From positions 243,665 through 267,664 of the forward strand of contig NZ_JBHLXJ010000009.1 of the NCBI RefSeq assembly GCF_042432465.1: DNA of 24,000 nt. The letters run 5' to 3'. The notes beneath the pieces are model-generated. The model searched no databases. It was not told the DNA's origin and was given only the letters and a program-made list of their open reading frames with translations. The first letter of the stretch is position 1, and every line of letters starts with the position of its first letter. Shown in pieces: positions 10,898 to 11,583 of this stretch. Origin of the DNA: Undibacterium danionis (GTDB lineage: Bacteria > Pseudomonadota > Gammaproteobacteria > Burkholderiales > Burkholderiaceae_D). The position numbers and the translations under genes were made by a program.

Positions 10898-11254
10898 TTA
10901 TTGCAGTTTTTTGAATTCTTCCAAAATATTGACGCAGGTAGCGCCAGTGTTTTTTACGTATTCTTGGTCGAAGGAAATAGCATTCTGTATCGCGTCTAAT
11001 ATCTGTTGCCCTTGTTGTTCACCTTCCGCGATTTTCTTTATGGCTAAGGCCAAACCCGCGGTATAGATCAGGTAGTTATTACGTTGAAATGAGACTGCAT
11101 CTAGCAATAGTAGATTGCTAGCGTTTAATGCAGTCAAGTAGGCCATGTTGTCGGCACAAGCGTCGGCATTATCTTCTTTGGTTGCAGGAGAATTTTCTGG
11201 CTTGATATCCTTACTTTGGTACTCAAAGGAGCGCCCTATTTTGTCGGTGATCAT
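10898..11254 (-). CDS. hypothetical protein, translationally coupled to rebB; possibly a very divergent RebB-family paralogue
   Basis: 118 aa. Its ATG overlaps the rebB TGA (ATGA at 11251-11254), and SD gggaga lies 7 nt upstream. The central segment DNMAYLTALNASNLLLLDAVSFQRNNYLIYTAGLALAIKKI aligns by eye to the core of the upstream RebB protein (AMAMGSLYQ...NAVYAQQQANVAYQAATTLAVTQL). The family assignment is inference only. Confidence 0.6.
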   Translation of the reverse strand: MITDKIGRSFEYQSKDIKPENSPATKEDNADACADNMAYLTALNASNLLLLDAVSFQRNNYLIYTAGLALAIKKIAEGEQQGQQILDAIQNAISFDQEYVKNTGATCVNILEEFKKLQ

Positions 11255-11583
11255 TTTTGTTCTCCCGAGCTGCCATTTTTTAGTTGTGCTAGCTTAGCGG
11301 TAAGCGCATTAATTTGTGCCTGTAATTCTTCAATTGATGGCGTTCCGCTTGCGTCATTTGACTGGTTGCTATTGAATAATTGAGTGACCGCTAGTGTCGT
11401 GGCTGCCTGATAGGCAACATTTGCCTGTTGTTGTGCATAGACTGCATTGGCAGCGGCCATTGCTACCGAGTTGCCTATGGTCTGGTAAAGACTTCCCATT
11501 GCCATCGCTGGCGCTTCCGCTAATACTTTTGTGTTAGTTATCGTAACGGCATCTGTGATTTGTGAATTGACGGTATCGCTCAT
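11251..11583 (-). CDS. rebB: RebB-family R-body ('killing trait' domain) protein
   Basis: 110 aa with SD aagga. The N-terminal 70 aa, MSDTVNSQITDAVTITNTKVLAEAPAMAMGSLYQTIGNSVAMAAANAVYAQQQANVAYQAATTLAVTQLF, match the hallmark of RebA/RebB/RebD proteins (VNSQITD.VT.TN.KVLGEAPA.AMG.LYQ...NAV..QQ). Confidence 0.85.
   Translation of the reverse strand: MSDTVNSQITDAVTITNTKVLAEAPAMAMGSLYQTIGNSVAMAAANAVYAQQQANVAYQAATTLAVTQLFNSNQSNDASGTPSIEELQAQINALTAKLAQLKNGSSGEQK

Follow-up and report, generated by a model that had tools for sequence, protein, structure and literature searches.

The locus described here lies in a 24,000-nucleotide stretch of the Undibacterium danionis genome (contig NZ_JBHLXJ010000009.1, positions 243,665 to 267,664; assembly GCF_042432465.1), which is referred to below as the window. 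It consists of two short genes on the minus strand, a rebB-type gene that encodes a putative R-body subunit and a second gene, called the partner, which follows it directly. The features of the pair are listed below in window coordinates, each with the evidence from which it was placed.

11251..11583, minus strand: rebB-type gene, 110 amino acids (aa), RebB core plus C-terminal tail (Pfam PF11747, identity to an NCBI protein, and the ratio of nonsynonymous to synonymous substitution rates, dN/dS).
11365..11559, minus strand: RebB core domain, residues 9-73, containing the QITD, NAV and QQQ motifs (extent of the Pfam match).
11254..11373, minus strand: C-terminal tail of RebB, residues 71-110, a low-complexity linker followed by an amphipathic heptad helix (AlphaFold2, heptad spacing, conservation).
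11272-11334, minus strand: heptad helix of the tail, residues 84-104 (AlphaFold2, low confidence overall).
11261..11266, minus strand: GGGAGA Shine-Dalgarno sequence of the partner gene, within the 3' end of rebB (read from the sequence GGGAGAACAAAAATG).
11251..11254, minus strand: ATGA stop/start overlap joining the two open reading frames (ORFs) (read from the sequence).
10898..11254, minus strand: partner gene, 118 aa (ORF list, AlphaFold2, family searches).
Partner residues 1-29, minus strand: disordered acidic N-terminus (AlphaFold2).
11027-11167, minus strand: helix 1 of the partner hairpin, residues 30-76 (AlphaFold2).
10904-11014, minus strand: helix 2 of the partner hairpin, residues 81-117 (AlphaFold2).

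An earlier annotation of the window, made from the letters and their ORFs and referred to here as the sequence-only reading, had described a compact, translationally coupled two-gene unit, and both ORFs and the ATGA overlap were found where it had placed them. The GGGAGA sequence lies 6 nucleotides (nt) 5' of the partner ATG. In related loci the stop and start codons of rebB and partner overlap by 4 nt or 1 nt, or are separated by a spacer of 1-2 nt. On the evidence of this arrangement the two genes are translationally coupled. Both are under purifying selection, with dN/dS values of 0.11-0.16 for rebB and 0.07-0.10 for the partner. In two of the related loci (L012:5833-6279 and L023:3890-4336) the longest-ORF rule yields a 148-aa partner that overlaps rebB by approximately 130 nt. 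The real start in these loci is almost certainly the conserved MTSPNAM… or MSSSNAM… just past the rebB stop codon, so that automatic ORF calls there may be wrong.

The 110-aa protein is clearly a member of the RebB family as judged by profile comparison. It matched the Pfam RebB family ("Killing trait", PF11747) with an E-value of 1.1e-22 and a score of 80.3 bits, the gathering cut-off being 24 bits, and the match covered residues 9-73 and profile positions 1-65 of 68. The protein is 100% identical to the NCBI entry 'RebB family R body protein [Undibacterium danionis]', which puts the window in a betaproteobacterium of the Oxalobacteraceae. The family call made in the sequence-only reading was therefore upheld by both the profile search and the NCBI annotation; the gene is already annotated in databases and the call itself is not new. 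A primary Reb signature, consisting of QITD, a proline after domain 1, NAV and QQQ, has been treated as diagnostic of the family (Dorr et al., 2026; PMC13430693). The corresponding motifs SQITDAV, EAPAMAMG and NAVYAQQQAN are all present in the 110-aa protein, and the proline N-terminal to QITD is missing owing to the short N-terminus. In the core, identity is 80-86% to short Rebs (72-85 aa) from the multi-reb clusters of marine gammaproteobacteria, for example those of Exilibacterium, Gynuella, Idiomarina and Planctobacterium. A search of the PDB by sequence gave no relative of the protein and no solved Reb structure, and NCBIfam gave nothing useful for either RebB or the partner. The AlphaFold2 model of the RebB monomer contains a long helix (residues 7-75), a disordered linker (76-83) and a second helix (84-104), with a predicted local distance difference test score (pLDDT) of 59.

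The sequences quoted earlier for the core and for the 40-aa tail matched the translation exactly, and the description of the tail as heptad-like and lying outside the core domain agrees with the data: the Pfam match stops at residue 73, and the hydrophobic residues I84, L87, I91, L94, L98 and L101 follow a 3-4-3-4-3 spacing over three heptads. The tail also gave weak matches to coiled-coil Pfam families. Its layout, a linker followed by [E/Q]xxQIxxLxxQLxxLK, is kept in a subfamily of RebB proteins of 110-145 aa; the tail is kept in all RebBs that are linked to a partner gene, and was found only in these. In the two large gammaproteobacterial clusters that were examined, those of Idiomarina xiamenensis and Gynuella sunshinyii, the RebBs had no tails. 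A C-terminal tail has precedents among Reb proteins: Caedibacter RebA (114 aa) and RebB (105 aa) both run approximately 35 aa past the core. RebA's C-terminal part tunes pH-driven extension (bioRxiv 10.1101/029587).

The partner protein, previously described as unrecognisable, is a member of a rare, conserved family with a remote relationship to the HP1.2 accessory proteins of large reb clusters and probably to RebC of Caedibacter. Three relatives were returned by a word-indexed search of 5.8 billion proteins, and a HMMER profile search of 1.84 billion cluster representatives gave 14 clusters at an E-value of 1e-3 or below. A scan of 185,579 species genomes located six partner loci (Undibacterium amnicola, U. 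baiyunense, U. macrobrachii, Oxalobacteraceae UBA7693, Gilvimarinus algae and a Cellvibrionaceae metagenome-assembled genome), and five further loci were found in 241 million metagenome records. A tailed RebB of 110-145 aa lies directly 5' of the partner in 20 of the 21 loci, with the genes overlapping or spaced by no more than 2 nt, and this pairing spans approximately ten lineages of Beta- and Gammaproteobacteria (Undibacterium, Cellvibrionaceae, Aliikangiella, metagenomes). The flanks of the related loci, covered to at most 6 kb per side, contain no further Reb except in Aliikangiella coralliicola, where the order is a short 72-aa Reb, a tailed Reb and the partner. The genes around the pair are wholly different between lineages, and the pair therefore behaves as an autonomous unit. 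By these comparisons the tailed Reb and its hairpin partner form a conserved, mobile two-gene module, which is newly recognised here.

The sole partner locus that lacks an adjacent RebB is a 1.5-kb contig with a suspected in-frame fusion. On this contig (L024:73-1317; PJEL010151986.1, 1575 bp) a 414-aa ORF has the partner domain, in frame, at its C-terminal end and resembles a His-rich lipoprotein or membrane-fusion protein in its N-terminal part; this is the result of either a chimeric assembly or a genuine fusion. The tailed Reb of Aliikangiella coralliicola (L016:4746-5788, GCA_007004725.1) is 145 aa in length and carries a long Lys-rich extension; the three-gene layout of this locus resembles that in Caedibacter, in which RebD is short, RebA and RebB are tailed, and RebC is the fourth protein. 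On one metagenome contig, seven tandem genes of approximately 101-115 aa are located about 2 kb downstream of the Reb-partner pair (L017:7767-10348, minus strand). One of these has a weak match to DUF5992, and none matches the hidden Markov models (HMMs) of Reb or partner.

Using an alignment of 14 sequences, AlphaFold2 predicted that the partner folds as a confident two-helix hairpin, with a pLDDT of 79.7 overall and above 90 within the hairpin. The near-invariant or invariant residues of the family are D52, R58, N59, N60, Y64, T65 and C107.

The accessory proteins HP1.1-HP1.4 were defined in the reb clusters of the group-1 synteny type (Raymann et al., 2013; PMC3583457). In Idiomarina xiamenensis and Gynuella sunshinyii the cluster comprises 4-5 Rebs without tails, together with a sigma-54 activator, a regulator of the AraC type and approximately ten small hypothetical genes. 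Among the small proteins of these two clusters, only one of 98/101 aa matches the partner profile from end to end. The 280/335-aa proteins gave a local match of 20 columns with a similar score (P 0.004), and for the 136/124-aa proteins no direct match to the partner was seen (P 0.66). The latter represent a second, longer HP1.2-like paralogue that both clusters have besides the 98/101-aa copy (L008:6227-6637 and L009:6768-7142), and matched the HP1.2 profile with HMMER E-values of 7e-12 and 7e-10 respectively.

Comparison of the partner with a 21-member alignment of the 98-aa family using hhalign gave a probability of 50.5% and an E-value of 1.6e-4 over 85 columns; the score of 28.3 was not reached in any of 200 column shuffles, for which the maximum was 18.0. 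The 98-aa family matched a hypothetical protein of 116 aa encoded in the reb cluster of Azospirillum brasilense with a probability of 98.4% (P 9e-15), and by this profile match it is clearly the same as the Azospirillum HP1.2 protein. The partner compared with the Azospirillum HP1.2 sequence gave an hhalign P of 7e-5. With broadened HP1.2 profiles the probability was 94.4% (E-value 9.2e-8, 91 columns), and a second alignment gave 74.6% (E-value 2.7e-5, 90 columns). When the HP1.2 profile was run with HMMER against the 1145 ORFs of the collected loci, every partner ORF ranked above all unrelated ORFs, and the U. danionis partner itself scored 25.7 bits with an E-value of 7.2e-7. Identity between the partner and HP1.2 in the profile alignments is approximately 17-18%. 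The HP1.2 family is specific to R-body clusters, and the partner likewise occurs beside reb genes, RebB being directly 5' in all but one of the loci. The assignment of the partner as a remote homologue of the HP1.2 accessory proteins (approximately 100-120 aa) of large reb clusters is well supported by these profile comparisons.

Judged by its length and gene order, HP1.2 is probably equivalent to group S3 of Dorr et al. (2026; PMC13430693), the seed of which, htRebG (WP_068173302.1), is 113 aa in length. In that survey a protein is assigned to a group when its identity to the seed (here htRebG) is 40% or more, so the partner, which is approximately 18% identical to HP1.2 members, would probably fall among the proteins classed there as 'unknown'.

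The absence of a rebC-like gene from the locus, as stated in the sequence-only reading, is probably incorrect, because the partner is remotely related to HP1.2 and probably to RebC. The RebC protein of Caedibacter taeniospiralis (114 aa) has been said to have no homologues in both the 2013 and 2026 surveys (PMC3583457, PMC13430693). Its gene, on plasmid pKAP298, starts 8 nt after rebD and spans the origin of the sequence record:

NC_005915.1, 48821..49112 joined to 1..53, minus strand: Caedibacter rebC (pKAP298 record, L019/L020).

The partner resembles RebC in format, being 118 aa compared with 114 aa, predicted to be helical and tightly spaced after a reb gene. Comparison of Caedibacter RebC with the HP1.2 profile using hhalign gave a probability of 65.9% (P 5.7e-5, 99 columns), with a score of 32.0 that none of 150 heptad-block shuffles reached (maximum 20.4); a second alignment gave 45.1% (2.2e-4, 88 columns). 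The HMMER E-value of RebC against the HP1.2 profile was 0.006, and BLASTP aligned RebC to an HP1.2-like 152-aa protein of the Paramecium symbiont "Ca. Bealeia" over 108 residues with an E-value of 0.002. A merged profile of partner and HP1.2 sequences gave RebC a score of 24.9 (P 5.7e-4), above all 150 block shuffles, and scored RebC higher than did the partner or HP1.2 profile alone. The three families have a common layout, in which a variable N-terminus precedes two helices, the first of them long, joined by a short Gly/Pro loop, and similar C-terminal motifs were seen across them (LVKNFPRG, VLNSFPSS, ILNSFPPG, VLxDLKP and ILEEFKKL). A C-terminal NFP/SFP motif is common to Caedibacter RebC and the HP1.2-type proteins of Azospirillum, 'Ca. 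Bealeia' and marine Gammaproteobacteria. On these profile and motif similarities, it is roughly as probable as not that Caedibacter RebC belongs with the HP1.2 family and hence with the partner.

The interpretation preferred here is that the locus is a self-contained minimal R-body module, in which a Reb subunit and a RebC-like assembly factor are produced from one coupled transcript; the evidence for and against leaves this evenly balanced. The 110-aa RebB would be the primary subunit, its polar-rich alpha-helical core polymerising into a sheet or ribbon with the tail, comprising the linker and three-heptad amphipathic helix, positioned on the ribbon surface. The partner, by analogy with RebC, would steer the subunit into an ordered alpha-helical roll and not into aggregates. 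Caedibacter RebD and RebC alone gave rolls in 67% of Escherichia coli cells, and RebC was not detectably incorporated but shifted assembly from beta-rich aggregates to ordered alpha-helical lamellae (bioRxiv 10.64898/2026.05.21.725848). The tail helix may dock against the partner hairpin to give a three-helix bundle, which would explain the constant co-occurrence of tail and partner. After assembly the tail could mediate inter-layer contacts or act in the trigger, like the C-terminus of RebA. We infer, in sum, that an R-body is built, that the partner is its assembly factor, that tail and partner are in contact, and that the structure may undergo pH-triggered extension or break membranes. A broader proposal unites the partner family, the HP1.2-type proteins (probably group S3) and RebC in one superfamily of hairpin assembly factors, with the pair as a self-sufficient minimal two-gene R-body system in which the tail docks on the hairpin; taken as a whole this is tentative and somewhat unlikely.

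Several points weigh against the minimal-module interpretation. In the four-gene type 51 system of Caedibacter no knockout extends with pH (bioRxiv 10.64898/2026.05.21.725848); all four Reb proteins are needed for extension, so that one Reb species may yield no more than static rolls. The 2026 survey counts clusters from three reb-related genes upwards and drops smaller ones as noise (PMC13430693), and the window has one RebB with one partner. The literature contains no report of an R-body from Undibacterium. The link between partner and RebC runs through the intermediate HP1.2 family; the partner profile compared directly with Caedibacter RebC gave a score of 12.7, which was reached by 55 of 300 shuffles and is not significant. 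The partner, HP1.2 and RebC are all Ala-, Gln- and Asn-rich helical hairpins, a class that is prone to spurious profile matches. The RebB monomer model is of low confidence (pLDDT 59), and the contact between tail and partner is purely conjectural.

It is also conceivable, though unlikely, that the partner is a co-structural subunit, a diverged Reb paralogue that co-polymerises approximately 1:1 with the tailed RebB into a heteropolymeric ribbon, for which RebA/RebB in Caedibacter and RapA with RebP1/P2 in Pseudomonas aeruginosa are precedents. The overlapping ORFs suggest near-equimolar synthesis, and RapA, a protein outside the Pfam Reb family, was found in purified R-bodies of P. aeruginosa PA14 (PMC8322103). 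The match of the partner to Pfam RebB is sub-threshold (E-value 0.09), and RebB is the only Pfam family that recurs among members of the partner family (3 of 16, best E-value 0.0088, sub-threshold). A custom RebB HMM gave a positive score for 15 of the 16 members, the best being 16.4 bits, and in the printed alignments helix 1 of the partner (…DAVxFQRNNxxYTAGLxLA…) falls in a single register on the NAV/QQQ half of the Reb core (NAVYAQQQANVxYQAATTLGV). These alignments hint that the partner carries a trace of very distant Reb ancestry, and not membership of the family. Comparison of the partner and RebB profiles with hhalign gave a probability of 3.8% over 26 columns, and with this value and the sub-threshold Pfam matches an assignment of the partner as a plain RebB was rejected. 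The partner is also without Reb domain 1, including the QITD motif and prolines, has an extra second helix, and finds better-supported relatives in HP1.2 and RebC.

Also unlikely is the possibility that the pair builds no R-body, being either a reduced remnant of a larger reb cluster or repurposed as a small soluble complex or another filament. The single Reb gene contrasts with the 4-6 Rebs and several accessory genes of the confirmed or typical clusters examined. No regulator gene was found among the flanking ORFs scanned against Pfam, as had been stated earlier, and no homologue of HP1.1, HP1.3 or HP1.4 is present at the locus; the treatment of such small clusters as noise and the lack of any reported R-body from the genus point in the same direction. 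Against this, purifying selection on both genes is strong, the pair is conserved whole and is mobile between classes and contexts, the Reb core differs very little from that of multi-copy clusters, and a single Reb with RebC, in the form of RebD and RebC, does form rolls in experiment.

A dispersed R-body system, with further reb or accessory genes elsewhere in the U. danionis genome, is improbable: some genomes do have one more Reb homologue at a distance from their main cluster (PMC3583457), but HMM scans of all window ORFs of at least 45 aa showed RebB and partner to be single within the 24 kb, the flanks of related loci, up to 6 kb per side, have no further copy outside Aliikangiella coralliicola, and the recurrence of the bare pair in many unrelated genomes and contexts argues for autonomy.

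The gaps on either side of the pair measure 469 bp (10429-10897) and 248 bp (11584-11831), and the neighbouring genes encode MipA (PF06629, E-value 5e-38) and a TonB-dependent receptor that contains both a Plug and a beta-barrel domain, all in agreement with the sequence-only reading. The placing of the locus in an accessory pocket was not sustained, as the locus is syntenic across Undibacterium and its GC content is unremarkable (0.44-0.45, matching the surroundings, with no island signature in the composition profile). In U. amnicola and related Undibacterium-type contigs the gene order is a divergent bPH_5-like gene, rebB, partner, mipA, PhyH, M15 peptidase, a small ORF and DUF885. The order in the U. 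danionis window is the same, but with the TonB-receptor gene between rebB and the bPH_5 gene. This gene (11832-13970, minus strand) is apparently also present at that position in a close relative (L002) and is absent there from U. amnicola-type loci. Its longest ORF opens with an odd His/Ser/Pro-rich segment of approximately 40 aa ahead of a signal-peptide-like stretch, and the true start is therefore probably further downstream. Two features were placed in the gaps:

10772..10798, minus strand: GC-rich hairpin (AACCCCG...CGGGGTT), approximately 100 nt past the partner stop codon (sequence).
11584..11831, minus strand: upstream intergenic region of 248 bp, presumed to hold the promoter of the pair (position).

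The gaps had been called unusually long, and proved to be ordinary. The gap ahead of mipA is equally long in other Undibacterium loci, and contains a hairpin/terminator 3' of the partner followed, upstream of mipA, by a block that is strongly conserved and bears a TTGACG motif. This block (window 10500-10625, minus strand; …TCACGCCGTTTTT…TTGACGACA…ATTCT…TCTCATT…) is nearly invariant among Undibacterium loci while the remainder of the gap diverges, and it is presumably the promoter or operator of mipA. A consensus scan did not call the hairpin as a terminator; U. amnicola-type loci have a canonical hairpin and T-run at the equivalent place, and from its sequence the hairpin likely ends the two-gene transcript. 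Upstream of the pair, the consensus scan gave no minus-strand sigma-70 promoter and no sigma-54-type promoter was seen by eye. The upstream region can be aligned in part among Undibacterium loci, with a conserved ribosome-binding site, AAAGGA. No Rfam family was found between 10300 and 12000, an interval that includes both gaps.

R-bodies are under development as pH-driven protein actuators, and have been implicated in the killing or damage of eukaryotic hosts. The logic of their assembly is not yet well understood, with the role of RebC becoming clear only in 2026. New in the present analysis are the two-gene module, the placing of the partner among the HP1.2-type proteins and, tentatively, the inclusion of RebC in that family; because the 2026 survey (PMC13430693) leaves out clusters of fewer than three reb genes, this type of module is not described in it. 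The Undibacterium pair may represent the smallest natural R-body gene set. If functional, it would be the smallest gene set known in nature for making a Reb polymer, as well as a simple engineering chassis, and it would show that surveys ought to keep clusters of one or two reb genes. The link between partner, HP1.2 and RebC would then give a testable assembly-factor function to an unannotated protein of several otherwise unrelated reb clusters. If only static rolls form, or nothing, the gene is an ordinary RebB homologue that was already annotated.

When the locus was compared with known systems, one of the closest was the Caedibacter type 51 operon, rebA-rebB-rebD-rebC on pKAP298. Both encode small alpha-helical PF11747 subunits, the major type 51 subunits RebA and RebB have C-terminal tails of approximately 35 aa, and the reb gene is directly followed, after a gap of 8 nt, by one for a protein of approximately 114 aa, RebC, that is not a Pfam Reb. 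The assembly role of RebC and the sufficiency of RebD and RebC for rolls serve as a functional template for the Undibacterium pair. The two differ in that type 51 has three Reb paralogues and Undibacterium only one, that RebC is remote from the partner and linked to it through HP1.2 profiles, the direct comparison not being significant, and that the Undibacterium tail is a clean three-heptad helix of the coiled-coil type. The type 51 operon is located on a symbiont plasmid, while the Undibacterium pair is on the chromosome of a free-living freshwater, fish-associated genus.

The group-1 synteny clusters of Raymann et al. (2013), which include those of Azospirillum brasilense, Idiomarina xiamenensis and Gynuella sunshinyii and are probably the same as groups 1/S1-S3 of Dorr et al. 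(2026), resemble the locus in the sequence of the Reb core, which is 80-86% identical in the gammaproteobacterial members, and in the presence of an HP1.2 protein of approximately 100-120 aa that is remotely homologous to the partner. They contain 4-6 untailed Rebs together with HP1.1, HP1.3 and HP1.4, and in the two gammaproteobacterial examples there are also sigma-54/AraC-type regulators, whereas Undibacterium retains only the tailed Reb and a diverged HP1.2-like protein.

The P. aeruginosa PA14 cluster (rebP1P2, rapA, rebD, rcgA and fecI2) belongs to another, mutually exclusive synteny group. RapA is approximately 210 aa in length with no detected relationship to the partner, and the cluster encodes dedicated regulators that are absent at the Undibacterium locus. 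Like the Undibacterium pair, it includes a protein outside the Pfam Reb family: RapA is encoded within the cluster and associates with the R-body, and PA14 provides a precedent for R-bodies in free-living Proteobacteria (PMC8322103).

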